From contig DYSM01000001.1 of the NCBI GenBank assembly GCA_020718265.1, positions 1-37,167 on the forward strand: DNA of 37,167 nucleotides, read 5' to 3'. The notes under the pieces were generated by a model. That model was given only the letters and a program-made list of their open reading frames with translations. It searched no databases and was not told the DNA's origin. Numbering within the stretch: position 1 is the stretch's first letter; the number at the start of each line of letters is the position of its first letter. The position numbers and the translations under genes were made by a program. Positions 131-37,050 of this stretch are shown here, in pieces. Source of the DNA: Draconibacterium orientale. Its GTDB lineage: Bacteria; Bacteroidota; Bacteroidia; Bacteroidales; JAADGE01.

Positions 131-490
131 ATGTATAATCGTAAAAAAGGCGATATCGTTGTCGCCATTAATCACGAACAAGGCGAGACTAAGCTCTTTG
201 CGGACTTGAAAACAGCTTGCACCGAACTCGGTGTAAGCTACCGAAAAATGGAAGGTGGTGAGAACGGAAGAGAATTCCCGTTCAGAGAAGGTGAGTGGTT
301 TTTCGATTCAATTTCGGTAATAACCTCAAAAGAGGTGAAATATCGTAACGCTGTCATGGACATTATTTCTGATTCCGGAATTAATAGAGAAACTGTTGTT
401 CGTTTTTTTCAAGAACAAGCACCACTGTACACGCCCTATGACGATTATTCTAGTTCCGAATGGGCAGAGATTATTTTGCAGTTTGCTTAA
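131..490 (+). CDS. hypothetical protein, possibly a small DNA-binding protein
   Basis: 119-aa ATG ORF directly upstream of, and probably co-transcribed with, the pentapeptide-repeat gene (12-nt gap). The segments 'KLFADLKTACTELGVSYRKM' and 'GINRETVVRFF' loosely resemble NUMOD1/HTH-type motifs. The resemblance is weak. Confidence 0.45.
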   Translation: MYNRKKGDIVVAINHEQGETKLFADLKTACTELGVSYRKMEGGENGREFPFREGEWFFDSISVITSKEVKYRNAVMDIISDSGINRETVVRFFQEQAPLYTPYDDYSSSEWAEIILQFA

Positions 491-502
491 AATTACAGAA
501 AA

Positions 503-1333
503 ATGAAAGCATTACAAACAATAATTGATAGGTTTTTCAAGTCGGGGCAAAAAGGGCGAGACCTTTACAAGAGATATTCTTACCGTTTCGGGGAGGATTT
601 TTCGGGCACGAATTTTTCGGACGTGGATTTTTCGGACGCGAATTTTTCGGACGTGGATTTTTCCCGCGCGAATTTTTTTCGCACGAATTTTTCTTACGCG
701 GTTTTTTTGGGCACGGATTTTTCGGACGCGAATTTTTCGGACGCGAATTTTTTGGGCACGGATTTTTCGGACGCGAATTTTTCGGACGCTAATTTTTTTT
801 GCACGAAATTTTTCCGCACGAAGTTTTCTGACGCGAATTTTTCGGACGTGGATTTTTCTCGCGCGAAATTTTCCCGCGTGGATTTTTCCCGTGCGAATTT
901 TTCTCGGGCGAAATTTTTCCGCGTGGATTTTTCGGACGCGAATTTTTCGGGCACGAATTTTTTGGGCACGAATTTTTCGGACGCTAATTTTTTCCGAACG
1001 AATTTTTTCTGCACGAATTTTTCACGCACGAAATTTTCGGACGCGAATTTTTCCCGCGTGAATTTTTCGGACGTGTATTTTTTTGATGCGAAATTTTCGT
1101 ACGCGAAAGTCGTAAGGTCGGTGAGTTTCAATATTTATAAGTATGCGTCTTTTTCTTTTGAAATGGACACTGGAACGAGATATATACGTCTCGGTTGCCA
1201 TGTCCGAACTCTCGAAGAGTGGGAGTCTGATTTCTGGGATAATGACGAAGAGTTCCCAGATGATAATTCTGAGAAAAGCAATCTTAGGAAATTAGCTTTT
1301 GAAACACACAGGAAATGGTTCTCGAAATTGTAA
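503..1333 (+). CDS. pentapeptide-repeat protein (34 tandem pentads) with an acidic non-repeat C-terminal domain
   Basis: aa 31-200 read as uninterrupted pentads (EDFSG TNFSD VDFSD ANFSD VDFSR ... AKFSY) with an invariant central F. This matches the A(D/N)LXX pentapeptide-repeat consensus. The C-terminal 76 aa are non-repetitive and acidic (EEWESDFWDNDEEFPDDNSE). Confidence 0.88.
   Translation: MKALQTIIDRFFKSGQKGRDLYKRYSYRFGEDFSGTNFSDVDFSDANFSDVDFSRANFFRTNFSYAVFLGTDFSDANFSDANFLGTDFSDANFSDANFFCTKFFRTKFSDANFSDVDFSRAKFSRVDFSRANFSRAKFFRVDFSDANFSGTNFLGTNFSDANFFRTNFFCTNFSRTKFSDANFSRVNFSDVYFFDAKFSYAKVVRSVSFNIYKYASFSFEMDTGTRYIRLGCHVRTLEEWESDFWDNDEEFPDDNSEKSNLRKLAFETHRKWFSKL
593..1102 (+). repeat. 15-nt periodic coding repeat (units such as aatttttcggacgcg)
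   Basis: This is the DNA image of the pentapeptide repeats. The periodicity keeps several frames open on both strands, which produces the shadow ORFs 525..1061 and 694..1131. Confidence 0.9.
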
Positions 1334-1601
1334 CACAGTGGAAAAAAGTAATAGCTCCGATTATTGAAAAATTGGGGCATACTGAAAAGAAATGTTTCGC
1401 ACATTACCAGGCTCGAAGAAGAACTTGTTAAGAAATAGCCGCGAGTTTTTTTTTGTATTGTCTCTATTCGAAAAAAAGGGTTGATTCATATATATTTGAA
1501 TGTGAGTCGTGGATTGATTTTTTTTTTTTATGATAAGAAGCCGAAAGGCATTAATTTCGTAGTTTCGACTATGCTCTCGCTTTTGCGGTAGCTTTTATTT
1601 T

Positions 1602-1641: not shown

Positions 1642-1887
1642 ATGTTACTCTCTGAGGCAATAGAGCTCGCACAAAACGGACAGCCGCACGATTTCACATT
1701 CGTGTCGCACGGAACTGCCAAGAAGAAACGCGAAGGCGGTTACACTGTGAACATGACGAAAGCTGTTGTAATAAGTTCGTTTAAGGAAAAACAGAAAATG
1801 AATCTAAAATCGTTAGACAGCGGGCAAATTCGTTGGTGCTATTTTGTATTACTCACACATATTGATAATGAAGAGATATTTGTATGA
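1642..1887 (+). CDS. hypothetical protein (81 aa)
   Basis: The track ORF 1600..1887 starts at TTG. An in-frame ATG at 1642 sits 6 nt after the -7-like box. The stop overlaps the portal ATG (ATGA at 1884). Confidence 0.45.
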   Translation: MLLSEAIELAQNGQPHDFTFVSHGTAKKKREGGYTVNMTKAVVISSFKEKQKMNLKSLDSGQIRWCYFVLLTHIDNEEIFV

Positions 1888-3263
1888 AAGAAGAAAAGTT
1901 TGAATTACTTGTGCCATTTTCGGCAAGCTATTTGCCCGGCGCACGTGCAGCGGTAACTTTCGCATCCACAGATTATTTCACGGAACCGGATAAGCCTATT
2001 TCTGTCAGTGAGAAATATCGCGGTGCTGTGCCGTGGGGCTCTGACAATGACTTGCCTAGATATATTACGGACACGCTCGGGAAGAATCCTGTCGGCTCCG
2101 GAAGTATGGAATTGCGCATTGATATTGCTTACGGCGCAGGCGTGAAGTTCGGCGTTATGGACGAAAACGGCGAATTTCGCGAGGCTACTCAGCAAGAAAA
2201 ACAAGGCGTATATGCTGCTGTTGAGCAGTTTTTTCAAGATAACGATATGAACACGTTCATGTCGGAATTGATTACGGACATTAATTTTTTCTACAACGGT
2301 TTCGTTGAAATCATTCTCGATATGAATGAAACAGGCAGTCGTCGCGTTGTTTCGATGGCGGCAAAAGAGGCGTATTTTTCGCGTTGGGAAACTGCAAATC
2401 CTGATACCGGCATTGTTGAAAATCATTTCTATTCTGCGCTGTGGCCCAAAAAACCGAAGGATACTGAGGTTACAATTACACCTGTAATTTGGGCGAAAAA
2501 TGCCGCCAAAGAACTTGAAATTCGTATCGGTCGCCGACCGAATGATGTCGGCAAAACTAAGGATGAAAAGGAATTCCGGTATATTCTTCCTGTTCGCTTG
2601 CCTTCGCCCGGACGAACATACTACACGAAGCCATATTGGTATTCTGTAATAGAATCCGGTTGGATGGAATTTGCGAACAAAATTCCGGAATTTAAAAAAC
2701 AATTTATGCTTTACAGCATAAATATTGCGTATCATATTGAAATTAACGAACAATATTTTCCGAAAATATTCGCCAAAGAAGGCATTACAACCAAGAAAGG
2801 GCAGGAAGAGCGCGTGAAAAAAGAACTCGACAATTTGAATGAGTTCTTGAAAGGCGCAGAAAAAGCGGGCAAATCCATGATTACTTATTTCAAATCTACG
2901 CCCGACGGCAAGGTTGAAATTCCTGATATTAAGATTCATGTCATTGATAAGAAAATTGGCGGCGAATATATTGACGATTCGCACGAAGCCTCTGCAATGA
3001 TTGCTTACGCCATGCGTGTGCATCCGTCGCTCATCGGAACTATACCCGGCAAAACTACATCCAATCTTTCAGGTTCTGACAAGCGCGAACTGTTACGTAT
3101 TGCACAGAGTTTGCAGAAACGAGTTCGAGACCAAATCTTGAAACCGCTGTATCTGGTAAAACAGATTAACAAATGGTCGCCTGAGATTGAATTTTCAATC
3201 CCTGATATTTTCCTGACCACGTTGGATACCAACGGCGAAATCGACAAATCCGCACAAGTATGA
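1884..3263 (+). CDS. putative portal protein
   Basis: 459 aa. It is the first large structural ORF downstream of terL if the contig is circular, and its size is typical for portals. It is translationally coupled to the next gene (ATGA at 3260). No diagnostic motif was recognised, so the call rests on position and size. Confidence 0.55.
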   Translation: MKEEKFELLVPFSASYLPGARAAVTFASTDYFTEPDKPISVSEKYRGAVPWGSDNDLPRYITDTLGKNPVGSGSMELRIDIAYGAGVKFGVMDENGEFREATQQEKQGVYAAVEQFFQDNDMNTFMSELITDINFFYNGFVEIILDMNETGSRRVVSMAAKEAYFSRWETANPDTGIVENHFYSALWPKKPKDTEVTITPVIWAKNAAKELEIRIGRRPNDVGKTKDEKEFRYILPVRLPSPGRTYYTKPYWYSVIESGWMEFANKIPEFKKQFMLYSINIAYHIEINEQYFPKIFAKEGITTKKGQEERVKKELDNLNEFLKGAEKAGKSMITYFKSTPDGKVEIPDIKIHVIDKKIGGEYIDDSHEASAMIAYAMRVHPSLIGTIPGKTTSNLSGSDKRELLRIAQSLQKRVRDQILKPLYLVKQINKWSPEIEFSIPDIFLTTLDTNGEIDKSAQV

Positions 3264-4147
3264 GCCGCACAATTTTCTTAACTATTGCCGAAATTAAGGA
3301 GCAAATCAGTGTTGATATTAGCTCCGATATTCGTACGCTGCAACCTTACATCAAACAAGCCGAAACGCGCTATCTGAAAGAAATTATCGGAACAGATTTG
3401 CTTGAATTACTTCGCGCTGCCGTAAACGACGAAGATGCAATCACGCCCGAACTTGAAGCCTTGCTTCCTGTTGTGCGCTACCCTGCCGCACATTTCGCGT
3501 ATATGTTGGCTGTGCCGCAATTATCGCTGAATGTCGGCGAGACCGGCATCGGCGTAACGATGAGCGGAAACTTTGAACCGGCAGCCGAATGGCGATTGAA
3601 AAACTTTTCAATTTCGCTCGAAAATACAGGCTACGACGGCGTTGAGGAATTGCTTGAATTCCTTGAAACCTATGTTGCCGACTACCCGGAGTGGGTTTTG
3701 TCTCCCGCATATTCGTTCAACAAAAAGTTATTTGTGAATAATGCTGCCGAGTTTGAAACGGCTACGATGATTGACATTCCGCGTCTGAAATTCCTGCATT
3801 TGCGTTCGCATCTGTATATGTTTGAGCAAAATACAGTGAAAAAAACAATTTCGGCGGCACTTGCCGACGAAATAAAGGCGCAAATCATTGCGGATACGCT
3901 CTCGCCTGAGAATGAGTTGCTGCTCAACTCCTACATTCGCCCGGCGGAATGTTATTTCGCACTGTGGAAAATGGAAGATAAGGCCGAATTGAAGCTCGAA
4001 TATACCCGACTGGTTGAAGAATTACAGGCATATCTGAACACGAATGCCGCAACCTATCCGCTGTATGAAGCTTCTGACTGCTACTCAACCTTGAGCGTGA
4101 TTGGGTTGAACGACGAAGCCAGCGGATTTTTCATGATGGGACGATGA
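3260..4147 (+). CDS. hypothetical protein (head/connector module)
   Basis: 295-aa ORF. Its start overlaps the portal stop and its stop overlaps the next start, giving an operon-like arrangement. Confidence 0.6.
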   Translation: MSRTIFLTIAEIKEQISVDISSDIRTLQPYIKQAETRYLKEIIGTDLLELLRAAVNDEDAITPELEALLPVVRYPAAHFAYMLAVPQLSLNVGETGIGVTMSGNFEPAAEWRLKNFSISLENTGYDGVEELLEFLETYVADYPEWVLSPAYSFNKKLFVNNAAEFETATMIDIPRLKFLHLRSHLYMFEQNTVKKTISAALADEIKAQIIADTLSPENELLLNSYIRPAECYFALWKMEDKAELKLEYTRLVEELQAYLNTNAATYPLYEASDCYSTLSVIGLNDEASGFFMMGR

Positions 4148-4881
4148 GGGCCTATGAAATGAATTATAAGCGTTCGATTCCTGTGGAGTGGAACGGACTA
4201 TCGGCAGAGGAACTGTCGTATGCTTTGCATCTGAAAAAATTGAACCTCACAAAAGAGGCATTCAATGTGCTGTTTTTGCGGCACGCGCTGAAAATTCCGC
4301 ATCGAAAATTCTATTTGATTCCTGCCGTAGAAATGGCAAAATATGCCGAAAAGATTGAATTTTTGCACAAAAAAGCGGAATTGACCGTCAATAAGTTCCC
4401 TTTTTTGAAGTTCCGAGGAAAAGAACTCAAAGGACCTTCCGACGGTATGACGGACATCTCGTTCGAGCAATATTTTGGTTATGCGTCCATGTATTTGGAC
4501 ATGTTCGCCGAAACACATAAGGACTATTGGTTGAATCGTTTTGTGTCTGCGCTGTATCATGAAGGCGAGTTCAATGCAGACAACATCGAACGGAATGCGA
4601 TTCTGATTGAGAAACTGCCCGTGTACACGAAGGAAGCTGTGTTGCTGTTCTATACATCTTGCTCCGATGTTTTTCCAAACAGATTCCCGGAATTGTTCTC
4701 GAAATCAGTCGCGCCTGTGCGAGACGACTTGCACTATTTTAAGATGTTGGACAACATTGCGGACGGCGCACTTGCCGACAATCACTTCGTGAAACGCTCA
4801 AATATTATTGAAGTGTTCATTCGCCTACAGGCGATGCACAAGGAAAATGGAGAATTCAAAAACCGCACACATGGATATTAA
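4144..4881 (+). CDS. hypothetical protein (head/connector module)
   Basis: 245-aa ORF with overlapping start and stop junctions on both sides. Confidence 0.6.
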   Translation: MRAYEMNYKRSIPVEWNGLSAEELSYALHLKKLNLTKEAFNVLFLRHALKIPHRKFYLIPAVEMAKYAEKIEFLHKKAELTVNKFPFLKFRGKELKGPSDGMTDISFEQYFGYASMYLDMFAETHKDYWLNRFVSALYHEGEFNADNIERNAILIEKLPVYTKEAVLLFYTSCSDVFPNRFPELFSKSVAPVRDDLHYFKMLDNIADGALADNHFVKRSNIIEVFIRLQAMHKENGEFKNRTHGY

Positions 4882-10820: not shown

Positions 10821-13800
10821 ATGGCAGATATACAAGGCAGAGTAGATTTGAAGGTGAACGGCGACGATGCCGCCGCCGAACTAAAACGCTTACAGAAGAA
10901 GACTTCGGAACTCCGTCAGGAGATTTTGAAAGTGCAAAAAGAACAGTTACTGAAAAAGAGTTCGATTGACGAAGCTTACAAGGCTCTGAAACTTGCACAA
11001 ACACGCGCATCGGATTTGCGCATCGAAATTGTGAAACTCTCACAAGCCGTTGTCATTGACGAAAAAGCATTGAAGCTCGCCAACGCCGAACTTGCCAAGG
11101 CTGATGCCGAAATAAAATCTATCAATAAGGAGTTACGTACCTTAGAGAAAAACCCGGCATTGAACGCACTCAATGCGGAACTCAAAGCAACGAACAACCA
11201 ACTCCGTGCCATTGATAACGCAACTTTCGAATACAGTAAAGTCCTTAAGAATCTATCAGGCGCAACCATTAAAGACTTGAACCGCGCACATGCACAACTC
11301 AGTAAGGAAATTCAAACCATAAACCGTAACACGGACGAATATCGCCAAAAGTCCAAACAACTTGCGCAAATATCTACAACTATCGGGCAAGTGCGCAACG
11401 AGATGCGCGGCGTTGCAAAAGAAACGCTGACATTCAAGGATAGACTCGGCAAGATGGCTGATAATTTCAACCGTTTCGGCGCAATGTCAATCGGCATTAT
11501 CGGTTCACTTACCGGATTAGTGGTCTCGGCACGCAAAGCGGTGGATGCGTTCAACGAGTTTGAATCTTCGCAAGATAATTTGCAGGCATTGACCGGACTT
11601 TCAGAAGAAAAGGTGAAAGGCTTAGGCGATGCCGCGATTGAAATGAGCACATCTGTGCAGGAAGGCGGCGTGCGCATAACGAAATCCGCCAAAGATATTG
11701 TGGATGCGTTCACGTCCGCAGGCTCGAAACGACCGGAACTGCTCGCAAACGCAGAGGCATTGAAAACCGTTACGAACGATGCACTTATCCTTGCCGAAGC
11801 CGCTAAGATGGAACTCGACCCGGCAATCGGCGCAGTTACCGCCGCCATGAATCAGTTCGGACTTGGCGCAGATGAAAGTCGCCGTATTATCAATGTGTTT
11901 GCGGCAGGCTCGAAGGCAGGCAGTGCGGAGGTGGACAGCCTTGGAGAATCGTTCAAGAACGTGGGAACGGTGGCATCGGAAAGCAACATGACTCTCGAAG
12001 AAACGGTTGCGGCATTGGAGGTTTTGGGTGACAAACAAATCTATTCGGAAGAAGCCGGAACGAAATTGCGTGGTGCATTATTGAAATTAAAACAAACCGG
12101 CGTGGGTTACGCATCAGGCACGTTCAACATGCGCGATGCTTTGTTAGAAGCGAACGCACAACTTGAAAAACAAGGCACGGAAGCGCAGAAAGATGCGCTG
12201 AAAATGAAATTGTTCGGTGCTGAAAATATTACGGTAGGTTCTATTTTGCTTGGCAACATCCTAAAATACGACGAACTGACAAAAGCCGTTACCGGCACGA
12301 ACACGGCAATTGAGCAAGCAGCAATTAACACAGATAATAACGCCGCCAAACTCGAACAGGCAAAAAACCGCGCCCAAGAAAATGCGATTGTGCTGGGCGA
12401 ACAGCTCGCCCCTGCCCTCACATTCAGTACGAATGCGTTTTCGTATTTGTTGAAAGTGTTGGTTACGATTATAAAAAATTGGGACACGTTTGCGAAGTAT
12501 TTGAAAATTGCTGTTGCCGGAATTGTAGCTTATACTGTCGTTACGAAAGGTGCGACAATTGCAACTTTTTTGCAAGAAAAAGCAACATTAGTCTTGAAAA
12601 AAGCCAACGACCTTCTTAGTATTTCAATGAAAAAAACGCCTTGGGGTTTGATAATAGCCGGAGTTGCTGCTGCAATTACGGCTTTTATATTATTCCGTGA
12701 AAAGGCTAAAGAAGCTGAAAAACCTCTGCTTAATCTTGCAAAAGCAGGTGATATATATTCTGAAAAAATGGCTGAGGTTGTCGGCGAAAGTGATGCTCTT
12801 TTTGAGATGCTGAAAACAACAGAAAAAGGCACGCAATCTTACGACAATGTATTGAAGGCTGTTAACGAAAAATATAAAACATATTTGCCTAATCTTCTTA
12901 CACAGCAGACTTCATTAGAAGATATTGAAAAAGCTCAAAAAGCAGTAAATGAGGCATTATTACAAAATATTGCGATTGAAAGTAAAAAAGAGGAATTTAT
13001 AAATCTAAACAAGGAATACTTAAGGTCACAACGTGAAATTTTTAAAATTTTCAATGAAACGATTAAACCATCTGTTATTGATAGACTTGATACGTTTAAT
13101 TTCGCTTGGTTTCAAGCTGCGGCAAATGCCGGCTTAACAGCCGATCAGATAAGCGCATCAGTTCAGTCTGCGACAGGATATAGTATTATTGATGATAATC
13201 TTCGGAATCTTGTTTCGGATACAAAACGTGCCGCACTTGAGTTTGAAAATGGGAAAAAAAGTATAGGAGAATTTTATTCTACGCTTATAACAGGAAGCGA
13301 AGAAGCGGCAAATTCAGGGAATGGGACAGGAGGCGGAACCGCAAACGCCCAAGCCAAAGCCGATGATTCTCGTATGCTTTTCGAGCTCATTCAACAATTA
13401 AACATCAATGCAATTGAGGACGAGCGCAAACGCGCTGCGGCTGAATTGGAAATCTGGTTCACGAAAGAGCAGGAGAAAATATTGATGGCGAAAGTATCGG
13501 AAGAGCAAAAGAATTATGCACTCTCGCAATTGGATGCCGCGTATACCGCCAAACGTATCGAGAATGAAAAGGCATATCAAGACGAATTACTGAAACGCTA
13601 CCAAGATATTGAGGCATTCGTAACCGAAGCGCAACGCGGCATCGTAACCGAACAGGAACGATTGAACGAAATTGAACTTGCGGCAATTGACGGAAAATAT
13701 CAAAAGCAAATTGATGCCGCAACGAAGTTCGCATCCGAAGATGTCGCCAGACGTGAGGAATATCTGCGCATTATTTCCGACCTTGAAACCGTGCGCGATG

Positions 13801-14828
13801 CCGAGAAAAAGGCGTATCTCGAAGCTAAGGAAAAAGAACATACAGAGATGATTCAATCCATTCGGGAGCAATACGGACTTATTAGCGATGCAGACAAATA
13901 TCAACAGCAGCTTGACCAACTGAAAGCATATAAGGATCAAGAATTACTGACAGAAGCGGAATACGAACAGGCATTGTTCATTCTGCGAACGGAACATCTG
14001 AAGCAATTGGATGCGCAAGCCCAAGCCGCGCACGATGAAGAAATGCAACGCCGCAGAGAGAACTTGTCGCAAATGTCGTCAGTTATCAGCGCAAGCGAAT
14101 CATTGACGAACGCCGCCAAAGAGCGTGAACTGCAACGTGTGGGCGATGATGAGGAGAAGAAAAAGCAAATCCAAAAGAAATATGCCGATATTGAATTTGC
14201 AATCACACTCGCGCAAATTGCTGCTACAGCCGCCAAAGCCTACATGGAAGCCGCCGCACTTGCATTGACTAATCCTATTGCTGGTGGTCTTGCGTATATT
14301 GCGCTCACTGCGCAAGCCGGCGCATCGACCTTAGCCGCTACCAATCAGCGCAATGCTGTAATGCAGCTCGCCGACGGAAAGTATGACGTAGTAGGTGAGG
14401 ATGACGGCAAACATTACGCCGCGCCGTTGGTTCCGACACTCAGCACCGGCATTGTGCGCAAGCCTACATTGGTAGCGGAAGAGCCGGAGTTCGTGGTGGA
14501 CAATCGCACCTTATATAATGTGAAAACGGACAGATACGGCATGACGGTAATGGATCATGCGCAGGCTATATCAAGGATGCGTAGTTTGCGTGTGCCTCAG
14601 CGCGCACGCGGGAAATACCAAACTGCAGGAACGAATGTTCCTGCAACGATGCATGCGGATAACTCCGAAATGATTGCCGAACTGCGTGCGATGCGCTCCG
14701 AACTCGGAAACATGCGTTCGGACTTACAAAATTTCAAGGGAAAACTGAAAGCGCAAATTGTCTATACGGATTTGGAGGATTACGAGGCGAAAATTAACAA
14801 GGTAAGAAACGATACTTCGGTGTTGTAA
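10821..14828 (+). CDS. tail tape measure protein
   Basis: 1335 aa, largely coiled coil. The core 'AAGSKAGSAEVDSLGESFKNVGTVASESNMTLEETVAALEVLGD...GTKLRGALLKL' matches the TP901-type tape-measure domain. Central TM-like helices are present. Confidence 0.92.
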   Translation: MADIQGRVDLKVNGDDAAAELKRLQKKTSELRQEILKVQKEQLLKKSSIDEAYKALKLAQTRASDLRIEIVKLSQAVVIDEKALKLANAELAKADAEIKSINKELRTLEKNPALNALNAELKATNNQLRAIDNATFEYSKVLKNLSGATIKDLNRAHAQLSKEIQTINRNTDEYRQKSKQLAQISTTIGQVRNEMRGVAKETLTFKDRLGKMADNFNRFGAMSIGIIGSLTGLVVSARKAVDAFNEFESSQDNLQALTGLSEEKVKGLGDAAIEMSTSVQEGGVRITKSAKDIVDAFTSAGSKRPELLANAEALKTVTNDALILAEAAKMELDPAIGAVTAAMNQFGLGADESRRIINVFAAGSKAGSAEVDSLGESFKNVGTVASESNMTLEETVAALEVLGDKQIYSEEAGTKLRGALLKLKQTGVGYASGTFNMRDALLEANAQLEKQGTEAQKDALKMKLFGAENITVGSILLGNILKYDELTKAVTGTNTAIEQAAINTDNNAAKLEQAKNRAQENAIVLGEQLAPALTFSTNAFSYLLKVLVTIIKNWDTFAKYLKIAVAGIVAYTVVTKGATIATFLQEKATLVLKKANDLLSISMKKTPWGLIIAGVAAAITAFILFREKAKEAEKPLLNLAKAGDIYSEKMAEVVGESDALFEMLKTTEKGTQSYDNVLKAVNEKYKTYLPNLLTQQTSLEDIEKAQKAVNEALLQNIAIESKKEEFINLNKEYLRSQREIFKIFNETIKPSVIDRLDTFNFAWFQAAANAGLTADQISASVQSATGYSIIDDNLRNLVSDTKRAALEFENGKKSIGEFYSTLITGSEEAANSGNGTGGGTANAQAKADDSRMLFELIQQLNINAIEDERKRAAAELEIWFTKEQEKILMAKVSEEQKNYALSQLDAAYTAKRIENEKAYQDELLKRYQDIEAFVTEAQRGIVTEQERLNEIELAAIDGKYQKQIDAATKFASEDVARREEYLRIISDLETVRDAEKKAYLEAKEKEHTEMIQSIREQYGLISDADKYQQQLDQLKAYKDQELLTEAEYEQALFILRTEHLKQLDAQAQAAHDEEMQRRRENLSQMSSVISASESLTNAAKERELQRVGDDEEKKKQIQKKYADIEFAITLAQIAATAAKAYMEAAALALTNPIAGGLAYIALTAQAGASTLAATNQRNAVMQLADGKYDVVGEDDGKHYAAPLVPTLSTGIVRKPTLVAEEPEFVVDNRTLYNVKTDRYGMTVMDHAQAISRMRSLRVPQRARGKYQTAGTNVPATMHADNSEMIAELRAMRSELGNMRSDLQNFKGKLKAQIVYTDLEDYEAKINKVRNDTSVL

Positions 14829-22574: not shown

Positions 22575-22860
22575 CTATTTCGTATTTGTGAAAGCCGATT
22601 CCGAGATTGATGCAGAATGGGCAAATATATTTGAGCCAAAAGAAATTGAAGCTCAAATCGACGAAAAAAAGGCTGTTATCAGAATTGAAGATTATCACAA
22701 AATCCATTTCAGCATGTTGCAATTGGTAGAATTCATTATCAAACTCTGTTTCGGAGTTGATATTTCCGAATTCAAAAAGTTACTTGTTAAGAAATACGGC
22801 TCTGAAATTCAGACACATGATATTTATTTTGGCTTATACAAATTAATTGAAATCGAATGA
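22537..22860 (+). CDS. hypothetical early protein
   Basis: The track ORF starts at 22504. The in-frame ATG at 22537 (MKPLKIKS...) reduces the overlap with the upstream gene. The stop overlaps the primase ATG. Confidence 0.45.
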   Translation: MKPLKIKSQNTHNYFVFVKADSEIDAEWANIFEPKEIEAQIDEKKAVIRIEDYHKIHFSMLQLVEFIIKLCFGVDISEFKKLLVKKYGSEIQTHDIYFGLYKLIEIE

Positions 22861-25800
22861 TACAGGTATCCACCATAAACCACTTGAAATCAATCGTCAA
22901 GATTGAAGATGTCGTCGGCGATTTCATTAATTTGCGGCGAAAAGGCACAGCACATCTCGGACTTTGTCCGTTTCACAACGAAAAAACCCCGTCATTCTCG
23001 GTATCTCCGGCAAAAGGCATCTACAAATGTTTCAGTTGCGGCGAAAGCGGCAATGCGTTCAGTTTCGTAATGAAACACGAAGCAATGAATTATCCGGAAG
23101 CAGTGAAATGGATTGCGAAAAAATATAACGTTCCCGTTGCAGAATCAGAATCCTCCGACGATGCCGCTCGCCGAACGCACAAGGAAAGCCTTGCAATTGT
23201 TACTGAATTTGCACAGAAAGTCTTTCTACATTCGTTCGATAAATCCGCAGCACACCAATATATGAGCATTGAGCGCGGTTTCAATGCTGAAATTTTGCGC
23301 GATTTCAATATCGGCTATGCGAAAGATGATTGGCAATTCCTGAGCGTTGCCGCACTTAAACGCGCATACAAAGCTGAATTATTGACGGAAAGCGGACTTT
23401 CCGGAACCAAGAAAACAGACGGCTCACTATATGACCGTTTCCGAAATCGCGTTATGTTTCCGTATTTCGATTTATCCGGAAAAGTTATCGGTTTTACAAG
23501 CCGTATTCTTACCGCCGACAAAAGCGAAGCGAAATACATAAACAGCTCAAATACAGAGCTTTTCGACAAAAGCAAAATACTTTTCGGCTTATTTCAGGCA
23601 AAAAAAGCGATTGTTGCCTACGATGAGTGCTTCTTAGTTGAAGGCAATACCGACGTGATGCGTTTCCATCAGCTCGGCATTGCGAACACCGTTGCCACAT
23701 CCGGAACCGCTCTGAGCACTATGCAAGTGAAACTGATTCAACGCTTCACATACCACGTGATTCTGCTGTTCGATGCCGATAATGCCGGCAAAAATGCGGC
23801 AATGAAAAGCATTGACAAGTTTCTTTCCGAAGATTTCGTGGTTAATGTTTGCATCCTGCCCGAAGGCGAAGACCCGGACAGCTTCGGTAAGTCGCGCACA
23901 AAGGATGAAGTGTTGAATTATATTCTTGAAAACAAAGTTGATTTCTTTGAATTTCAGGCGAAAACGCTGTTGAACGGCAGCGTTTCCGCAAAAGATATTG
24001 TGAAAGTTGCCGAAACCATTGCAACCTCAATTTCATTCATTGACAATGAAGCCGAACGTATTATTTTGAGAAAAAAACTTTCTCAAAAATTCGGCATCGA
24101 AGAAAAGCTCCTTGACAAAAAAACTGCAAAACTTTCCGAAGAAAAAGAATGCGTTATAGGCTTTTTTGCCTGGGAAGAAGCGAAGGAAGCTATCAAGGAA
24201 AAGAATGTTGCAAATCTGGTTTTTTCTAATGATTTCGTTATTGAAAAGCATTTCAATAACGAACTTAACACTGTCGGATTCACAGAAAATACAGCTTATT
24301 CATATTTCAATGAGCTGCATAAGCTTACGAAAAATATTAGCGTTTCAGAATCGCTTGGGCAATTTGATTTGATTGATACAAACGGAGAAACGAAGCTTTT
24401 GAAACTTTTCAAGCAACTTATTTCAGTTGGGTTTAACCTTGAGATTACATATTTCAATGAGATCGACGATAAAGAAGATACTACTTCATTCATTGACTTC
24501 TATTTTGAACTGCAAATAGGTTCAATCAAAGGTAGTAATGATAAGTCTAAGAAATCAGCAATTGAGAAATCCGCAGAAATAATATCATTCTTATCTGAGA
24601 CTGAGCGGATGTTAAAAATTAATCATGTTGTTTCAAGATTCAAAAGTAATGGATATGTCATCAATCAAGGCGATTTCAAAAAGATCGTTTCAGATTATCT
24701 CAAAGAGAACCAACGTTCCGATAATAAGGAAGTTACCATATATGCGAATAATCCGCACGGATTGACGAAAGAACAGCTCGAATCGCTTGACAAATACGGC
24801 TTGTTTGAGAAAGATAATCAGTTGTTTTTCGAGGAAAAAAGCGGCGGTTCTGTTCCTTATTCTAACTATATTATTCGCCCGCTCTTCCATATAGAAAGCA
24901 TCAACGAAACGCGCAAACTATTTGAAATCATAAATTTCAAGAACGAAAAACAGATTATCGAAGTTGATATTGAAAGCATGGTCAAGATTGACAAATGGCA
25001 AATATTCTGCGAAAGTAAAGGCAATTTCCTTTTTTGGGGAGACAAAACGAAATTCACTCGATTGAAACAACGCCTGTATGCCGATACGAAATTTTGCAAG
25101 AATATCGAAAACTTAGGCTGGCAAAAGCAAGGTTTTTGGGCATGGGCGAACGGAATTGTGTATGAACGTCAGTTTGTGCCTGTGGACAGTTACGGAACTG
25201 TAACCGTCCTAAATACGAATTATTACATCCCTGCATTTTCGGAGTTGTACAAACATGATAGAACAGTATTCAAGGCTGAGCGCAAATTCGTTCGCAAACC
25301 GCAAGACATTTCGTTTTTTCAATGGTCTGAAAAGTTCATTTCTGTCTATGGTGAAAATAGCAAACTATCTACCTGCGCACTGCTTACGTCTGTGTTTTCG
25401 GATTATATTTTTTCGATTACTGGGAACTTGCCTTTGGTAAATTTTTTCGGTGTGAAAGGCACCGGAAAAACAGAACATGCCAAGAGTCTGCTTAACTTTT
25501 TCGGAGATGAGCAGAACCTGCTCAACATTCACAAAGGCACGGAATATGCCGCCGCAGTGCACATGGAGAATTTCAAAAACGCATTTGCATTGATTGACGA
25601 GTATAAGAATTCGTTAGACATCAATAAGTTGGAATATCTGAAATCTATCTATAACCGCGACGGACGTGTGCGCGGTTCAATCAAGGCAGGAATTAAGACC
25701 GAAACGACACAAGTTAATTCCATGGCATTACTGTGCGGTCAGGAAATGCCGACGGCGGATGTCGCCTTGTTTTCGCGTCTTGTTTTCCTCCCTTACTATA

Positions 25801-26594
25801 ATCCGGAATATTCGCAAACGCAAAAAAACAAGTTCAATGAACTGAAAGCGATTGAGAAAAAAGGATTAACACACTTAGTTGAAGAGCTGCTCGGATTCCG
25901 TTCGCTTATTGAAAAAGAATACGAACAAACGTTCTACGATGTTGAGAAGGATTTGTCGGAGCAAGTATCTTCGTCGGTGGACGGGCGATTGATTAAGAAT
26001 TATGCGATTCTTATAGCGACATTCAAGATATTGGAATCGCGCGTGAGTGTCGCGTTCAAATACGAAGATGTGTTTCAACTCTCACTGAATCGCATTCGTG
26101 AGCAATATACGATTATGAACAGCTCCAACGAAGTCAGTGCATTCTGGGAAAGCCTTGTATCTCTTGCCGAACGCGGCATAATTCGACACGGCGATAATTA
26201 CCGAATCATTGACGAAATCTTCATCACCTTGCTTGTGAAGAATGGTGCATCAACGGAAGAAAAGAGATTTGATTTCTCAGGCTACAAAAACGGAAGTAAG
26301 CAAATATTGTATCTGAAAATGAGCACAATCTATAATTATTATGCCGAACTGTGCGCAAAAACGCGACAAGAAATTATGCCGAAACGCTCGCTTGAATATT
26401 ACATCGAACACAGCAAGACCTTCTTAGGTCGCTCGAAAAGCACACGCTTCGACAACGTAACCACAGGTTGGGCATTTGACTACGATATGCTCGGCATTGA
26501 CCTCAGCAGCCGTAACGATACACTGCAACCATATCACGAAACTCCGCAACCACTTCCTAACTATGAACCAAAAGATGATAATTCACCATTCTGA
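22857..26594 (+). CDS. DNA primase / P-loop helicase fusion protein (DnaG-type zinc finger + TOPRIM + C-terminal NTPase)
   Basis: CHC2 zinc finger '[30 protein letters not shown]'. TOPRIM 'LVEGNTDVM...TSGTALS...[13 protein letters not shown]'. Walker A '[12 protein letters not shown]' and Walker B 'FALIDEY' lie in the C-terminal half. 1245 aa. Confidence 0.9.
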   Translation: [1245 protein letters not shown]

Positions 26595-26741
26595 TATTGA
26601 ACAAATTACACACGGAAGCCTGTTCAGCGGCATCGGAGGCTTTGAACTTGCCGCAGAGCAGCACTCGGGAACGTCATAGTTCCAGAAGTAGCAGATAGAA
26701 TTTTTCAATCAATTATTTTCAAACAATACATTTTTCAATCA
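26563..26741 (+). pseudogene. C5-cytosine DNA methyltransferase remnant (motif I fused out of frame to motif X, core deleted)
   Basis: One frame gives MNQKMIIHHSDIEQITHGSLFSGIGGFELAAEQHSGTS*, carrying motif I FxGxGG. The frame starting at 26667 gives GNVIVPEVADRIFQSII..., the C-terminal GN(A/S)V.P.VA motif X. Nothing between them encodes the PC catalytic motif IV or the target-recognition domain. Confidence 0.65.
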
Positions 26742-27547
26742 TGCAAAAATCAAAAATCCAATGGACAGATTACACGTGGAATCCCGTGTGGGGTTGCTTG
26801 GGCGGATGCAACTACTGCTATGCACGCGGCATAGCGAAGCGATTTGCGAAACCTATTGCAGAGCGTGAGGCTACGCTTAACAAAAGAAAAAACATATTTG
26901 AAGATGTAGCGAGATTTACACCTACAATGTTAGACCATAGACTGTTTGCGGAATTTCCGAAAAAACCTTCGCGTGTGTTTGTTAATTCAATGTCTGACCC
27001 GGCATTTTGGAACAGAACTATACGCCGAGCAGTTCTTGACCGCATTCATTTCAATGAGTCTCATTCTTTTCAGATGCTTACGAAATTCCCGCAAATATTA
27101 GAGTTTGATTATTACCCGCCTAATTTATGTTTTGGCACCTCGTGCGAGAATCAGGAATCGGCAGATATGCGCATTCCGGCATTATTGGAACGTCCGGCGG
27201 CTTTGCATTTCGTTTCTTTCGAGCCGCTTACGGGGCATGTGAATCTGAAAACTGAATGGACAGAAAAAATTAAATGGGTAATCATCGGCGGCATGTCAGG
27301 CACGAAAGCCACACCGATGCGCATGGAGTGGGCTGAATCACTAATAGAAGAGTGCGAGATGTTCAATATACAGGTATTCTTCAAGAGTTGGGGCAAGTAT
27401 GTTCCGATAGAGAATCTGACTGTAAAAGAGCGCAATGCAATTATGTTGAAACCGCCAAAAATAACCGGCGAATATTGTTACAATGCCTCTGAACAAGTCA
27501 GCTATGAGCACGTGAGAGGGTTTGAGTATCGTAATTTCCCAAAATAA
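26741..27547 (+). CDS. DUF5131 / phage Gp37-Gp68 family protein (three-Cys motif, here CxxxCxxC)
   Basis: The N-terminus 'IQWTDYTWNPVWGCLGGCNYCYARG' matches the family signature (IEWTD.TWNP..GC....GC..CYA). 268 aa. Confidence 0.8.
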   Translation: MQKSKIQWTDYTWNPVWGCLGGCNYCYARGIAKRFAKPIAEREATLNKRKNIFEDVARFTPTMLDHRLFAEFPKKPSRVFVNSMSDPAFWNRTIRRAVLDRIHFNESHSFQMLTKFPQILEFDYYPPNLCFGTSCENQESADMRIPALLERPAALHFVSFEPLTGHVNLKTEWTEKIKWVIIGGMSGTKATPMRMEWAESLIEECEMFNIQVFFKSWGKYVPIENLTVKERNAIMLKPPKITGEYCYNASEQVSYEHVRGFEYRNFPK

Positions 27548-30116: not shown

Positions 30117-31337
30117 ATGAAAATCGGAATACCGACAGCTCTATCAAAAGGAGTTTGGGCAATATCACCTGAGGTTGCATTTGTTTATGGAAGTTTCGTA
30201 TCAAGTTTGCTTGCTGGTGAAAATGTCCAAATGGACGTGATAGCCGAATCTCCTTATACAACCGTTGCTTCTGATTCTTCCGGAACGCAAAAGCGCGTTC
30301 GGGTAATTCCTATCAAAGGTCCGCTCACTAAAGAAACTCAGATGTGCGGCCCTATCGGCATGGCTGAAATTGGAAACCAAATCATGCGTGCTGATTCAAG
30401 TTTCGATATTGATGCGATTCTTCTGGACATTGATACGCCCGGCGGAACTGTGGACGGCACAATTGCCTTGGCTGAAGTAATCCGAAATACAAAAAAACCG
30501 ATTGTCGCATTCGTAAACGGTATGGCGGCATCTGCAGGCATGTGGATTGCTTCCGCCGCCGACAAAATTATTGCTTCTACGAATTTCGATTCTGTCGGAA
30601 GTATCGGCGTAATGACTTCGTTCTTGGACATGCAACCGATGTGGGAAGCTGCCGGCGTGAAATTCCATACCTTACTTGCTGACCAAAGCTCTGATAAAAA
30701 TAAAATGTTCGACGAAATTCGCGCAGGCAAATATACGGACTATATCAAGGAGCGACTTAATCCGTTGGCGGACGCATTTCGCACATTCATCCGCGAAAAC
30801 CGTCCAAATATCACAGATGACATGCTTTCAGGAAAAGTCTATCACGCAAAAGATGTGATAGGCTCATTGGTTGATTCTATCGGCTCATTCGATGCCGCTA
30901 TTGAATCTACTATTTCTATCTTTCCGAAATCTTTTTCTAATCAAAATAATCAAGCCATGAGTAACTTCCAATTCCAAACCGAAGAGGATGCACGCAATTG
31001 GTTTCAAAAAATGTTTGGTCTGAAACCTCAAAAAGAGGTCGCAGCTGAGCAATTGGAACAATTGAAAGCAGACCGATTCATTCAAGATTCTGAAATCGCC
31101 CATCTGACTAAGCAATTAGCAGAGGCAGAAGCCGACAAAACGGCAATGCAACAAGAAATCTACATGCTCGAGCAAAACATCGCCGCGTTGAAAAGCCAAC
31201 CCGGTGCGCAAACTGCCGTAGCTACCAAAGCCACAGACGGTTATGTTGCTTCACCTACAGTAATTGATTTGCCGGAAGGTTCTTTCGCAGACCAATTCGC
31301 AGCGTTCAAGACTGTCTTAGATAACGCACGGAAATAA
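30117..31337 (+). CDS. S49 (SppA/ClpP-fold) prohead protease fused to a coiled-coil scaffold-like C-terminal domain
   Basis: 'ILLDIDTPGGTVDGTIALAEVIRNTKKPIVAFVNGMAASAGMWIASAADKIIA...VGSIGV' matches the S49 peptidase core. The C-terminal 120 aa are heptad-rich (EQLEQLKADRF...EADKTAMQQEIYMLEQNIAALK). It sits immediately upstream of the capsid gene. Confidence 0.85.
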   Translation: MKIGIPTALSKGVWAISPEVAFVYGSFVSSLLAGENVQMDVIAESPYTTVASDSSGTQKRVRVIPIKGPLTKETQMCGPIGMAEIGNQIMRADSSFDIDAILLDIDTPGGTVDGTIALAEVIRNTKKPIVAFVNGMAASAGMWIASAADKIIASTNFDSVGSIGVMTSFLDMQPMWEAAGVKFHTLLADQSSDKNKMFDEIRAGKYTDYIKERLNPLADAFRTFIRENRPNITDDMLSGKVYHAKDVIGSLVDSIGSFDAAIESTISIFPKSFSNQNNQAMSNFQFQTEEDARNWFQKMFGLKPQKEVAAEQLEQLKADRFIQDSEIAHLTKQLAEAEADKTAMQQEIYMLEQNIAALKSQPGAQTAVATKATDGYVASPTVIDLPEGSFADQFAAFKTVLDNARK

Positions 31338-34830: not shown

Positions 34831-35402
34831 AAATAGATCAAGTCATAGCCAAAATTCTTGATTCTTACAAGGATGAATCTGTTGTGCTCAACACGGCTGA
34901 AACTGAATATCGGAAGCGCATTGAGTTTATTATGGAAGAGAAATTGAAAAACATTGCTCTTTCAGATTTTGATCTTTATAAGCGTCTGAAAAAAAACGGT
35001 TTTCGAGGCGGATTCCCGGAGGCAGTACGCTACATTTCTGTTGCCGAACGGATTATTGCATTCGAAAAAGATCCAAACGGAGATCCGCATAGGACGTGGG
35101 ACAGATATTTCATTTCTGAAGTTACGAAAATGGCTATTGCAAAAGCAATTGTGAACGGAAATGAGTATAACATGGCGTATGCAGTTAACATCTACGGTAA
35201 GCATAAGCTTACCGACAAAGAAGACACTGTTCGGTTGCCTTACGACCAGATTATTCCTTTTATGCCTGAAATTACTTCGGATGTCAGCGTATTGGGAATT
35301 GAACCTATAAAGAACTTAGAAGCTCGGAAAGCTGAGCTTATGAAAAAATACGGAATTATTCAAGATGCTGAAATATTGAAACATGGACGCACCGAAGTGT
35401 AA
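34827..35402 (+). CDS. putative terminase small subunit (by position)
   Basis: 191-aa ORF immediately upstream of, and overlapping, terL. No diagnostic motif was recognised. Confidence 0.35.
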   Translation: MKIDQVIAKILDSYKDESVVLNTAETEYRKRIEFIMEEKLKNIALSDFDLYKRLKKNGFRGGFPEAVRYISVAERIIAFEKDPNGDPHRTWDRYFISEVTKMAIAKAIVNGNEYNMAYAVNIYGKHKLTDKEDTVRLPYDQIIPFMPEITSDVSVLGIEPIKNLEARKAELMKKYGIIQDAEILKHGRTEV

Positions 35403-37029
35403 GAAGTTCTATATGAACAAGGCGCAACGGTATGTGCATACTATTGCAGCTCGAAATAATTATATCATTGCCTCTCGGCGGTTCGGAAAGTCCGAAGGCA
35501 TTATCATGCCGCGATTATTACAGAATGTGCAGTCCATGCCGCGCTCATCGGGCGGGCTTATCGGCTCAACCTATAAGCAAGTTCTCACGCGAACTTTGCC
35601 CGCTACACTATTTGCATTGGAACGCCTTGGCTATCGCGAAGGGATTCATTATTTTGTAGGGCGAAAAGCCCCTAAGACATCCGGATTTGCCGATCCTTTT
35701 ATAATGCCGCGTTCTTGGGATTATTTCATTCATTGGTATAATGGTTCGGTTAATCCGATTATCTCTCAAGATATTCCGTATTCGTCCAACTCTCTGACAA
35801 TGGATTACTTAATCGGAGACGAGGCGAAAACACTGAACCGCGATAAGCTAATCAATGAAACACTTCCTGCTGTTTCCGGCTTGCCGCAATTCAAGAATAA
35901 TCCTTGGCATACAGGCGTGATGTTCGTTACAGACATGCCCACGAACAAACGCGGATTATGGATATTGAAGGAAGAGCAGAACATGGACAAAGAACTGCTG
36001 ACTGTGTTAGTAGGCATGATGCACAAGTATTTCCGCATGAAACTCGCAAATACAGGTTATGATACCAAGCCTATATTAGCATTGCGAAATCAGATAGACT
36101 TATTCCGAAAAGAACTTACATTGTATCAAGTATTTAATATCCTTGACAACCTTGAAATTGTCGGCGAGCGTTATGTTGCCGACATGCACCGAAATTTAAC
36201 CCCGTTCGTGTTCAGAACAGGGCTATTATCACAGCAAATCAAAACCACAGAAGGCGCATTTTACGGCGCGTTGGATGAAAAAAAACATTACTATGATGCT
36301 GTGAATATTTCAAAACTGAACAAATTCCGCTCGGATTACGGCGATATTGATTGGAAAGTTGCTACAAATCATTCATTCTCATGCGAAGATGATACCGACA
36401 TCAATCACAGCTTACCGTTAGTCATTGCTTCTGATACCAATATCAATATCAACTGGTTAGTTGTTGGACAAGCGGACTACCAAGAGAATAGGCTTAACAC
36501 ATTGAAATCATTCTTTGTCAAGTCTCCTGCGATGTTGCCGGAAGTCGTTAAGAAATTCACTGAATATTATTCGAGCCTCCCAAATAAGTCAGTCATATTC
36601 TATTATGACCACACATTCTTACAAGGTCGCTCAGGTAATTCAACAGAGACATTCTACCAAACTATATCGAACGAGCTTACAAAAGTCGGATGGATTGTAA
36701 CAGAACAATACATTGGTCAAGCCCCGAAGCACGATGATAAGCACAAGGACATTGATGATGCTCTCAAGGGCAGACGCGGATTGTTACCTATGTTTAATCA
36801 TTCTAACAATGAAGACTTGCTTACGGGCATGGAGAACACAGGGACACGCATATCGCCAAACGGTTGGGGCAAAGACAAATCAGGAGAGAAGACAGAAGAT
36901 TCTTCTGAAGATCCAGTTGAACATCGCACCGACGGCGGCGATGCTTGGGATACTTTGTTCATTGGTTGTAACAATTTCAGAGTGTCGTCGGTACATTCGC
37001 ATTTGTCGTTAAGCAATATGTTTCAATAA
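35383..37029 (+). CDS. terL: terminase large subunit
   Basis: Walker A 'ASRRFGKSEG', Walker B 'DYLIGDEAK', and a C-terminal nuclease-sized domain. 548 aa. ATG 35413 (MNKAQRYV...) is an alternative start that avoids the overlap. Confidence 0.88.
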   Translation: MDAPKCKKFYMNKAQRYVHTIAARNNYIIASRRFGKSEGIIMPRLLQNVQSMPRSSGGLIGSTYKQVLTRTLPATLFALERLGYREGIHYFVGRKAPKTSGFADPFIMPRSWDYFIHWYNGSVNPIISQDIPYSSNSLTMDYLIGDEAKTLNRDKLINETLPAVSGLPQFKNNPWHTGVMFVTDMPTNKRGLWILKEEQNMDKELLTVLVGMMHKYFRMKLANTGYDTKPILALRNQIDLFRKELTLYQVFNILDNLEIVGERYVADMHRNLTPFVFRTGLLSQQIKTTEGAFYGALDEKKHYYDAVNISKLNKFRSDYGDIDWKVATNHSFSCEDDTDINHSLPLVIASDTNININWLVVGQADYQENRLNTLKSFFVKSPAMLPEVVKKFTEYYSSLPNKSVIFYYDHTFLQGRSGNSTETFYQTISNELTKVGWIVTEQYIGQAPKHDDKHKDIDDALKGRRGLLPMFNHSNNEDLLTGMENTGTRISPNGWGKDKSGEKTEDSSEDPVEHRTDGGDAWDTLFIGCNNFRVSSVHSHLSLSNMFQ

Positions 37030-37050
37030 GATACTTTGGGCGAATACCGT
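36996..37050 (+). repeat. copy 1 of an exact 55-bp direct repeat (spans the terL stop)
   Basis: ttcgcatttgtcgttaagcaatatgtttcaataagatactttgggcgaataccgt is identical to 37113-37167. Confidence 0.95.

Follow-up and report, generated by a model that had tools for sequence, protein, structure and literature searches.

A phage pentapeptide-repeat gene from a large unnamed family that couples one conserved C-terminal domain to variable repeat solenoids

Introduction

Amongst described systems, the nearest experimental analogue of the gene considered herein is gp60 of Vibrio phage 24, a protein reported to counteract the RexAB-like abortive-infection system Sucellos. Escapers from Sucellos in V. cholerae carry mutations in gene 24_60 of phage 24, which encodes a pentapeptide-repeat protein, and deletion of 24_60 makes phage 24 much more Sucellos-sensitive; on the strength of these two results an anti-defence role was proposed by the authors (bioRxiv 10.1101/2024.07.02.601686). 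The gene under study, open reading frame (ORF) 503..1333, likewise encodes a pentapeptide-repeat protein, and lies near the start of a 37,167 nt stretch of contig DYSM01000001.1 (assembly GCA_020718265.1, deposited as Draconibacterium orientale), hereafter termed the window.

The annotation of phage pentapeptide-repeat genes usually goes no further than the repeats, after which the genes are passed over or wrongly labelled as Qnr-like resistance determinants. As such genes are common in deposited phage records (60 matches), and one of them has a counter-defence phenotype, the headline of the first-pass annotation of the window (a phage-encoded candidate DNA mimic, anti-defence or topoisomerase-targeting accessory protein) is not new in kind. 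What does appear to be new is a conserved, unannotated family of C-terminal domains (C-domains) whose fold has no significant match in the PDB, together with the pairing of this one domain with interchangeable repeat scaffolds and a family-wide lability of the repeats. A link of this family to orf232 of P22-like phages and to gp60 is probable.

Results and Discussion

A conserved C-terminal domain defines a large family

The product of ORF 503..1333 comprises three parts, namely an N-terminal cap, a pentapeptide-repeat β-helix and a conserved C-domain (Table 1). It belongs to a large unnamed family in which an optional N-cap and an idealised repeat solenoid are followed by an α/β C-domain of ~70 aa. 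The first-pass annotation treated the C-terminal region as an unrelated add-on, when it forms, in fact, the family's conserved core. Exhaustive phmmer searching with aa 201–276 alone returns 242 clusters (50 % identity) at E<=1e-3, 55 of which reach E<=1e-10, with a best match of E=1e-17. A word-indexed search with the same region had given no match, owing to a limitation of the index, and the exhaustive search was then used. One entry amongst the 242 (P0176, 3972 aa, six stretches) is a false positive, being a concatenated retroelement-like polyprotein with an acidic stretch. A profile search with the C-domain adds 262 further proteins, and a scan of IMG/VR with the same profile recovers 79 viral contigs; IMG/VR scans with the full protein, or with the 119 aa ORF upstream of the gene, returned no relatives.

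Table 1. Features of the window in and around the pentapeptide-repeat gene
Feature	Position	Strand	Remarks and basis
Complete gene, 276 aa + stop	503..1333	+	ATG start; ORF list and sequence
N-terminal cap, aa 1–30, MKALQTIIDRFFKSGQKGRDLYKRYSYRFG	503..592	+	Basic, net +6; helical by low-confidence prediction
34 pentapeptide repeats, aa 31–200, consensus A-N-F-S-D	593..1102	+	Pentad parsing, Pfam, AlphaFold, Foldseek
15-nt tandem array, unit ATTTTTCGGACGCGA	597..1107		Tandem Repeats Finder (TRF): 34.1 copies, 73 % matches
Conserved C-terminal domain, aa 201–276	1103..1330	+	Family-defining module; phmmer, alignment, AlphaFold
Codon of Cys232 (LGC motif)	1196..1198	+	Invariant in 72-sequence alignment
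Conserved loop DFWDNDEEFPDDNS, family consensus DFWNNxxEFPNDGS	1229..1270	+	Between short helix and C-terminal helix
Upstream 119-aa ORF, co-oriented	131..490	+	Variable neighbour, no significant family match
82-nt intergenic element with palindrome TTTTCACCCGTGAAAA	3..84		Marks cassette boundaries in relative L004

The domain is always found at the C-terminus, with a tail of <=10 aa behind it in most members, and its consensus reads ..LYKY........I.LGC..R...EWE.DFWNN..EFPNDGS..S..R..AF....W. Four residues (C232, W240, N247 and R262) are invariant in a 72-sequence alignment, and F244, W245, N246, N247, E250, F251 and P252 are near-invariant over 150 members. The window protein possesses Y212, Y214, G231, C232, R235, W240, F244, W245, N247, E250, F251, P252, S259 and R262, and its sole deviation from the conserved residues is D in place of N at 246. 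No counterpart of the domain is present in Pfam-A, PHROGs, NCBIfam or PADLOC. Whilst the first-pass annotation was right that a non-repeat region of 76 aa exists, its description as acidic holds only locally: the stretch EEWESDFWDNDEEFPDDNSE contains 11 acidic residues, but the domain as a whole has a net charge of -2 and a pI of 5.6.

An AlphaFold2 model of the C-domain, built from the 72-sequence alignment, reaches a predicted local distance difference test (pLDDT) value of 92.7 and a predicted template modelling (pTM) score of 0.81. In it, four β-strands lead into a short helix (LEEWES), which the conserved loop connects to a long C-terminal helix. Comparison of this model with the PDB using Foldseek gives nothing significant (best E=0.96, template modelling (TM) score <0.4), and a sequence-profile search of the PDB with the C-domain likewise finds no match. 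The hits obtained, such as AcrF2 (E=0.96, TM 0.35), are at chance level, and no conclusion was drawn from them.

The pattern of conservation brings to mind a targeted enzyme, in which the C-domain would act as a small catalytic module, dependent on Cys, that modifies a molecule of host or phage, with the solenoid serving only to deliver or position it. Cys232 is invariant and the near-invariant Arg235 follows three residues on, conserved Asn, Glu, Asp and Ser abound in the loop, the Gly–Cys pair is the only invariant feature common to the sister family described below, and C-domains also occur on their own. The domain is, however, only ~70 residues in size and matches no known enzyme fold or profile, and the escaper mutations in gp60 putatively fall in its repeat part rather than in its C-domain, such that catalysis appears improbable.

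One constant domain, many solenoids

The repeats that accompany the C-domain are of several kinds. Amongst 150 members scanned against Pfam, 59 contain Pentapeptide, 25 Hexapep (which forms a left-handed β-helix) and one LRR repeats, with the remainder harbouring Cys-rich or GGYISS-type repeats, or none. There is a clear fusion of leucine-rich repeats to the C-domain (L008), and stand-alone C-domains of ~70 aa exist as well (P0062 and P0112). The 268 members retrieved have a median length of 152 aa and a median run of 9 pentads, and the window protein is the longest of them; with the homologue on an IMG/VR contig (L040, 35 pentads) included, rods range from 0 to 35 pentads. Hence the C-domain is the constant module of the family, and the solenoid the variable one.

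Two C-domain genes can occur on a single contig. In IMGVR_UViG_3300042114_000016 they lie at both contig ends (L096 and L097), possibly owing to a terminal repeat or circular permutation. A second such pair (L031 and L035) is carried by contig JAKISX010000030.1 of a Sulfurimonas metagenome-assembled genome (MAG).

The pentapeptide rod

The claim of 34 uninterrupted pentads with an invariant central Phe, spanning aa 31–200, is confirmed by parsing and lies far beyond chance. Read from aa 31, position 3 is F in 34/34 pentads, with position 1 occupied by A15, T11, V7 and E1, position 2 by N18, D8, K6, V1 and Y1, position 4 by S24, F7 and L3, and position 5 by D14, R11, G5, Y2 and C2. The Pfam Pentapeptide model PF00805 scores 131.5 bits against ORF 503..1333 (cut-off 20.2, E=6.5e-39), placing the product within the superfamily. 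From the single sequence, AlphaFold2 generates a regular β-solenoid with pLDDT >90 over approximately residues 31–190, and Foldseek matches the modelled rod to all solved pentapeptide-repeat structures (HetL at TM 0.72, MfpA at TM 0.64), with a probability of 1.0 for HetL, MfpA, Qnr, AlbG and designed beta1 solenoids. The rod is thus predicted to be a right-handed quadrilateral β-helix of ~8.5 coils, as first suggested.

Ahead of the rod, AlphaFold2 places N-cap helices at aa 2–13 and 16–24 (pLDDT ~48). This cap differs from that of most family members, 'IEIKNRFTGxVLF', and is shared with P0001, L040 and P0071; the last of these has the same unusual basic cap, yet few pentads.

Given a rod of this shape, one could suppose that the protein is a decoy, with a β-helix that imitates B-DNA and titrates restriction enzymes, BREX or RexA-like sensors. 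The fold is indeed that of MfpA, Qnr and AlbG, the rod is mildly acidic (that of L040 more so, at -14), relatives lie close to methyltransferases and to ral, and the gp60 precedent acts on a RexAB-like system. Also counted in favour of a decoy is the binding of DNA by lambda RexA (PMC11077077). Nevertheless, the rod carries a net charge of only -6 over 170 aa (23 acidic and 17 basic residues), and all four faces are mixed in charge, with no acidic face amongst them, in a count made from the sequence rather than from a computed surface. By that count the strongly electronegative, phosphate-like pattern of the DNA-mimic class is not seen, and 10 Phe or Leu residues occupy the exposed i+1 position. 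Nor is charge conserved across the family, in which the net value per 100 aa of rod runs from -22 to +10 (median -4.7), with 23 rods net positive, as is the deposited gp60 array at +10. The C-domain is additionally fused to triangular hexapeptide helices and leucine-rich arcs, neither of which has a known DNA-like shape, and rods of 0 to 35 pentads fit poorly with a defined length of DNA. Finally, neither McbG nor QnrB, both of them pentapeptide-repeat proteins, relieved BREX or could stand in for Ocr against it (PMC7261183), which argues against decoys for that system and leaves a generic anti-defence property of pentapeptide-repeat proteins unsupported. DNA mimicry, as put forward in the first-pass annotation, therefore finds no support in rod charge or in conservation of charge and scaffold, and we consider it unlikely.

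A second reading that follows from the fold is modulation of topoisomerases, i.e. binding of host DNA gyrase or topoisomerase IV in the manner of Qnr, MfpA, AlbG and McbG. The generic fold and the comparable rod length of 8.5 coils would allow this, and phages are already known for gyrase inhibitors of other kinds, Igy and Gip among them (PMC10886550). Set against this, the protein scores far below the NCBIfam cut-offs for Qnr (NF033086, 44.5 vs 240) and MfpA (NF000349, 22.8 vs 360), with all Qnr subfamily models at <=50 vs cut-offs of 425–500. It is without Qnr-type loops, because the pentad array is uninterrupted, and its C-terminus is globular (four strands and two helices) as opposed to a dimerisation helix. 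Solenoid type and length are, moreover, not conserved in the family. The case for Qnr- or MfpA-like gyrase targeting is accordingly weak, and such a role is very unlikely. The pentapeptide-repeat fold should not, in other words, be equated with either DNA mimicry or gyrase targeting.

Repeat-number change in a 15-nt tandem array

At the DNA level the rod corresponds to a tandem array of 15-nt units, and in 16/16 family and sister genes tested there are arrays of 15 nt or multiples thereof, with 73–97 % matches. Three related phage contigs from sister Joint Genome Institute (JGI) samples have the gene, with 34, 20 and 35 pentads. The first of these (L005) encodes exactly the same 276 aa protein as the window; L004 encodes a product of 212 aa with 20 pentads (P0001), and L040 (IMGVR_UViG_3300000236_000003, 3404-4270) one of 288 aa with 35 pentads, all with central Phe, and a canonical FWNN loop. 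L004 lacks two blocks of the window array, one of 11 pentads and one of 3, both in frame, at an identity of ~90 % for flanking DNA and ~95 % for the N- and C-terminal parts of the protein. Across the 20-, 34- and 35-pentad relatives, the N- and C-domains are 83–95 % identical. For the non-repeat codons of the window and L004, the ratio of nonsynonymous to synonymous differences per site (pN/pS) is 0.31, albeit from small counts (10 nonsynonymous, 8 synonymous), and the non-repeat parts of the gene are under purifying selection. Similarly, the sister genes of phages L and ST64T are one 15-bp unit apart in genomes that are otherwise >99.9 % identical. The tandem array is the substrate for changes in repeat number.

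Two alternative-frame ORFs extend over the repeat, at 525-1061 (+, 178 aa) and 694-1131 (-, 145 aa). These are not independent genes, and stay open only because the 15-nt unit, when read in either frame, has no stop codon.

A sister family in cultured phages

Several cultured phages encode proteins in which a cap and repeats are likewise followed by a C-domain, but one of another form, ..R(A/I)GCQxH...W..F...EI..MDG..AL.FYPRLL. The carriers, which amount to 37 cultured-phage records, include Caulobacter phage RapA, Acinetobacter phages Acba, Ralstonia phage DU_RP_II, Vibrio phages CP-T1 and 24, and phages of the P22-like, Edwardsiella, Providencia (T4-like) and E. coli (T7-like, stand-alone) types. 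The P22-like examples are orf232 of L and ST64T and the gene of Salfasec13b, with others in epsilon34 and ST104. Alignment of the two C-domain profiles with hhalign gives a probability of 79.5 % (E=1.5e-5, 28 columns) with 10 sequences, and of 68.8 % with 4. The aligned part is the strand-GC-xxx-EW core, and within the sister-family alignment no pair but G–C is invariant. The window protein, which reads LGCHVR and is without MDG and FYPRLL, falls outside the gp60/orf232 motifs. A MAFFT alignment of the window C-domain with a P0010-type tail misaligned the GC motif, and the two were not merged into one profile.

The gp60 protein in GenBank (KJ572844.2, L020 12900-13322) is 141 aa long with ~8 pentads, and the shared architecture is confirmed. 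The escaper residues N110, Y112 and N115 match ANLYGAN of the deposited protein (N40, Y42 and N45) when shifted by 70 aa, i.e. 14 pentads. This suggests that the escaper residues occupy outward-facing repeat positions, and that the array as deposited for gp60 has collapsed, with a loss of 14 pentads; the phage 24 repeat was hard to assemble according to the authors (bioRxiv 10.1101/2024.07.02.601686).

In Salfasec13b (L018 3651-4648) the sister gene lies in the early-left operon, immediately downstream of ral, which it overlaps as annotated, and upstream of kil, arf, erf, abc2 and a Lar-like gene, a classical anti-restriction and host-takeover neighbourhood. Other sister genes are located in early regions of Autographiviridae. 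In Vibrio phage 1.184.A (MG592550; L039, ~1380-1735), AKLNH/AELNY pentapeptide repeats and a sister-type C-domain occur in different frames, in a region that is not annotated as a gene and has a GenBank 'CRISPR spacer' inside the tandem repeat. The frames could result from a frameshift in the repeat array or from sequencing error, and the region is probably misannotated.

Genomic context of relatives

In all seven of the long relative contigs (7/7) the gene is co-oriented within arrays of small early replication and recombination genes, which include those for single-stranded DNA-binding protein (SSB), RusA, YqaJ, NinG, ERF, RecT, Prim-Pol and DnaB; in 3/7 it is 0–2 genes away from a DNA methyltransferase. 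Clustering of 1,479 neighbouring ORFs from 106 family loci reveals no conserved partner gene, the largest cluster being ERF, in 8/106 loci.

These surroundings bear on whether the protein could be a virion or assembly component, such as a rod in a fibre, spike or needle, or a length ruler. The window gene does sit just upstream of a structural-looking block (the 459 aa gene, DUF6712, then the tape-measure protein), a single weak PHROG match falls on repeats within a tape-measure family, and the gene precedes terminase (TerL) in L007 and in 5/106 loci. Most relatives, on the other hand, reside within the early arrays, and sister genes occupy the P22 early-left operon and the Autographiviridae early regions. 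The proteins are also small, with C-domains of ~70 aa that stand alone, and a fitted structural part would hardly accommodate a change between 20 and 34 pentads from one near-identical phage to another. A place in the virion is thus scarcely credible.

The window and the neighbours of the gene

With regard to the window as a whole, its phage nature was rightly recognised in the first-pass annotation, as it encodes a tape-measure protein (PhageMin_Tail), a DnaG-type primase, DUF6712, DUF5131 and an S49 head protease, and it is a divergent tailed-phage-like genome. A nucleotide search of the window against 50,697 deposited phage records found no match. The order of modules is unusual: a primase fusion (1245 aa, 22857-26594) and DUF5131 (26741-27547) lie between tail and head genes, with the tape-measure protein (10821-14828) on the tail side and, at 30–32 kb on the head side, the S49 protease (30117-31337) and a putative capsid gene. 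Neither the terL label of ORF 35383..37029 nor the portal label of ORF 1884..3263 could be confirmed, as both are without a Pfam, PHROG or PDB sequence match. The former, a 548 aa ORF, displays a Walker-A-like IIASRRFGKSEG at aa 28–39, including IIASRRFGKS, and has no similarity to the Terminase_3 TerL of L007. Scans for promoters and terminators, of the sigma-70 type and of the Bacteroidetes type TTTG...TAnnTTTG, returned hits at chance level, and Bacteroides or Escherichia as a host is unsupported.

An exact 55-nt direct repeat occurs at 36996-37050 and 37113-37167, with a spacing of 117 nt. It overlaps the end of the 548 aa ORF, the window stops within its second copy, and it does not join window position 1; the window end at this repeat is probably an assembly break. 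A circular joining of the window ends, or adjacency of terL, is not supported: the 50 nt upstream of position 1 (known from L005) are not found elsewhere in the window.

Around the gene itself the neighbours vary. The upstream 119 aa ORF is near-identical in L004 (1 nonsynonymous and 2 synonymous differences) and is absent beside the L040 homologue, where the downstream 81 aa and 459 aa genes are conserved. The helix-turn-helix-like label given to this ORF is not borne out, since its best Pfam match (E=0.047) is below the cut-off. The 82-nt element further upstream holds a perfect palindrome, TTTTCAC-CC-GTGAAAA, and has copies in L004 at 256-337 and 2298-2379 (96 % and 91 % identical) that bracket extra small genes. 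L004 also has, at 2891-3141, a second and diverged copy of window 1318-1537. As the neighbours change (the 119 aa ORF and the extra L004 genes) and the repeat gene itself is retained, the region of the 82-nt element looks like a hotspot for cassette gain and loss, or a repeated regulatory site. The proposed location of the gene in a variable accessory slot thereby stands.

A cassette of this kind is where one might look for a moron, that is, a phage-carried defence or superinfection-exclusion gene directed against competing phages or serving the host. Besides the hotspot and its bracketing element, one may cite the pentapeptide repeats of the defence effector HalA of Hailong, and the proximity of the P22-like sister gene to superinfection-exclusion genes. 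The window protein nonetheless has no PADLOC match, scores 37.1 against a cut-off of 250 for HalA, and is without channel or membrane segment. There is no integrase or lysogeny module amongst the window ORFs scanned, the gene is kept in all three relatives as its neighbours change, and the only genetic evidence for this architecture favours counter-defence. We regard a moron as an improbable explanation.

Proposed role

Because of the genomic context of relatives and the gp60 precedent, we infer that the product of ORF 503..1333 is a soluble accessory phage protein. The reading that we favour, at roughly even chances, is that of an accessory factor acting within the cell, where it binds a protein of the host, probably one with a part in defence or DNA metabolism; a counter-defence or host-binding accessory protein is more likely than a classical DNA mimic. 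The accessory and counter-defence role proposed at the outset hence retains its precedent, in that loss of 24_60 sensitises phage 24 to Sucellos, but the DNA-decoy and gyrase mechanisms attached to it are weak.

Mechanistically, the protein would bind its host partner within the cell during infection, and the likeliest target would belong to a machine of anti-phage defence or DNA metabolism. The C-domain may supply a constant anchoring or effector function, with the invariant Cys, Trp, Asn and Arg and the DFWNN..EFPNDGS loop as a candidate active surface. The rigid solenoid might provide an interaction or steric surface that is easily resized and resurfaced, and would evolve rapidly through repeat slippage or recombination. 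Tentatively, and with more doubt than belief, one may extend this to the proposal that the C-domain is a new fold that marks a widespread counter-defence class, in which a constant module is combined with plug-in solenoids that diversify by tandem-repeat change, with gp60 and orf232 as distant sisters.

A number of observations weigh against an intracellular, host-binding role. The window gene stands at a contig start beside structural-looking genes, upstream of the 459 aa gene and DUF6712, and not within a clear early array. Variation in repeat number could be neutral, and the invariant single Cys could signify catalysis rather than binding. In the full-length AlphaFold2 model the packing of the C-domain on the rod is of low confidence. 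A tblastn search with the C-domain against the 50,697 deposited phage records gave no match at E<=1, and a scan of 185,579 species genomes yielded 15 loci, all on MAG contigs of scattered taxonomy. The bridge to experiment is likewise narrow: homology of the window C-domain to the gp60-type C-domain is probable, but distant, as judged from the 28 aligned columns, and literature searches found no functional study of the window C-domain family, only that of phage 24 gp60, which is of the sister architecture.

If the counter-defence reading is true, these genes would represent a large reservoir of immune inhibitors with built-in diversification by tandem-repeat length change; were the more tentative proposal of a dedicated C-domain class also to hold, phages would possess a repeat-based programmable binder system against host immunity. 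In either case, the focus shifts from the repeats to a C-domain that links hundreds of metagenomic phage genes over different repeat scaffolds, with a probable distant link to genes of P22-like, CP-T1-like, T4-like and T7-like phages. The cultured sister genes, phage 24 gp60 and P22-like orf232, offer a tractable entry to the roles of rod and end domain.

Comparison with known systems

Several described systems resemble the window protein in part. HalA of Hailong has pentapeptide repeats and a role in phage–host conflict; it is, however, a host defence effector with an ion-channel domain, whereas the window protein is without a membrane domain. Ocr, ArdA and Arn are strongly polyanionic mimics. 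Likeness to these extends to a small phage accessory protein with plausible counter-defence activity and some surface acidity, but their folds are unrelated to that of the window protein. With Qnr, MfpA, AlbG and McbG the protein shares a right-handed quadrilateral β-helix of ~8–9 coils, and differs from them in being phage-borne, with a variable repeat number, a globular C-domain and a charge that is not conserved in the family.

Amongst the predicted viral structures of BFVD, the best Foldseek matches of the C-domain are mostly phage β-solenoid or repeat proteins (probability >=0.9, TM 0.5–0.65), with no E-value significant. The domain is placed on proteins named 'polymer-forming cytoskeletal protein', 'hexapeptide repeat transferase-like' and 'beta solenoid repeat protein' (TM 0.47–0.65, probability 0.87–1.0), which derive from Bacillus phages Bp8p-T and phiAGATE and from uncultured Caudovirales, and carry bactofilin-like, hexapeptide and pentapeptide annotations. 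E-values for these are at least 0.02, at 9–16 % identity. Such model-based matches suggest that the plan of solenoid plus C-domain may be broader than this family.

The closest likeness is to gp60, the CP-T1 protein and orf232. Here the C-domain motifs differ (GCQxH ... MDG ... FYPRLL, as opposed to LGCxxR ... DFWNN..EFPNDGS in the window family), as does the repeat centre, which is Leu in the gp60/orf232 family and invariant Phe in the window protein. Hexapeptide and leucine-rich rods are used by the window family, unlike that of gp60 and orf232, and in deposited phage records the latter occurs in 37 from cultured phages, the former in none. Nevertheless, gp60, the CP-T1 protein and orf232 share with the window protein an N-cap, pentapeptide repeats and a C-domain of ~70 aa with a strand-GC-xxx-(E)W core, and are likewise encoded by 15-nt arrays of variable copy number in an early or accessory location.

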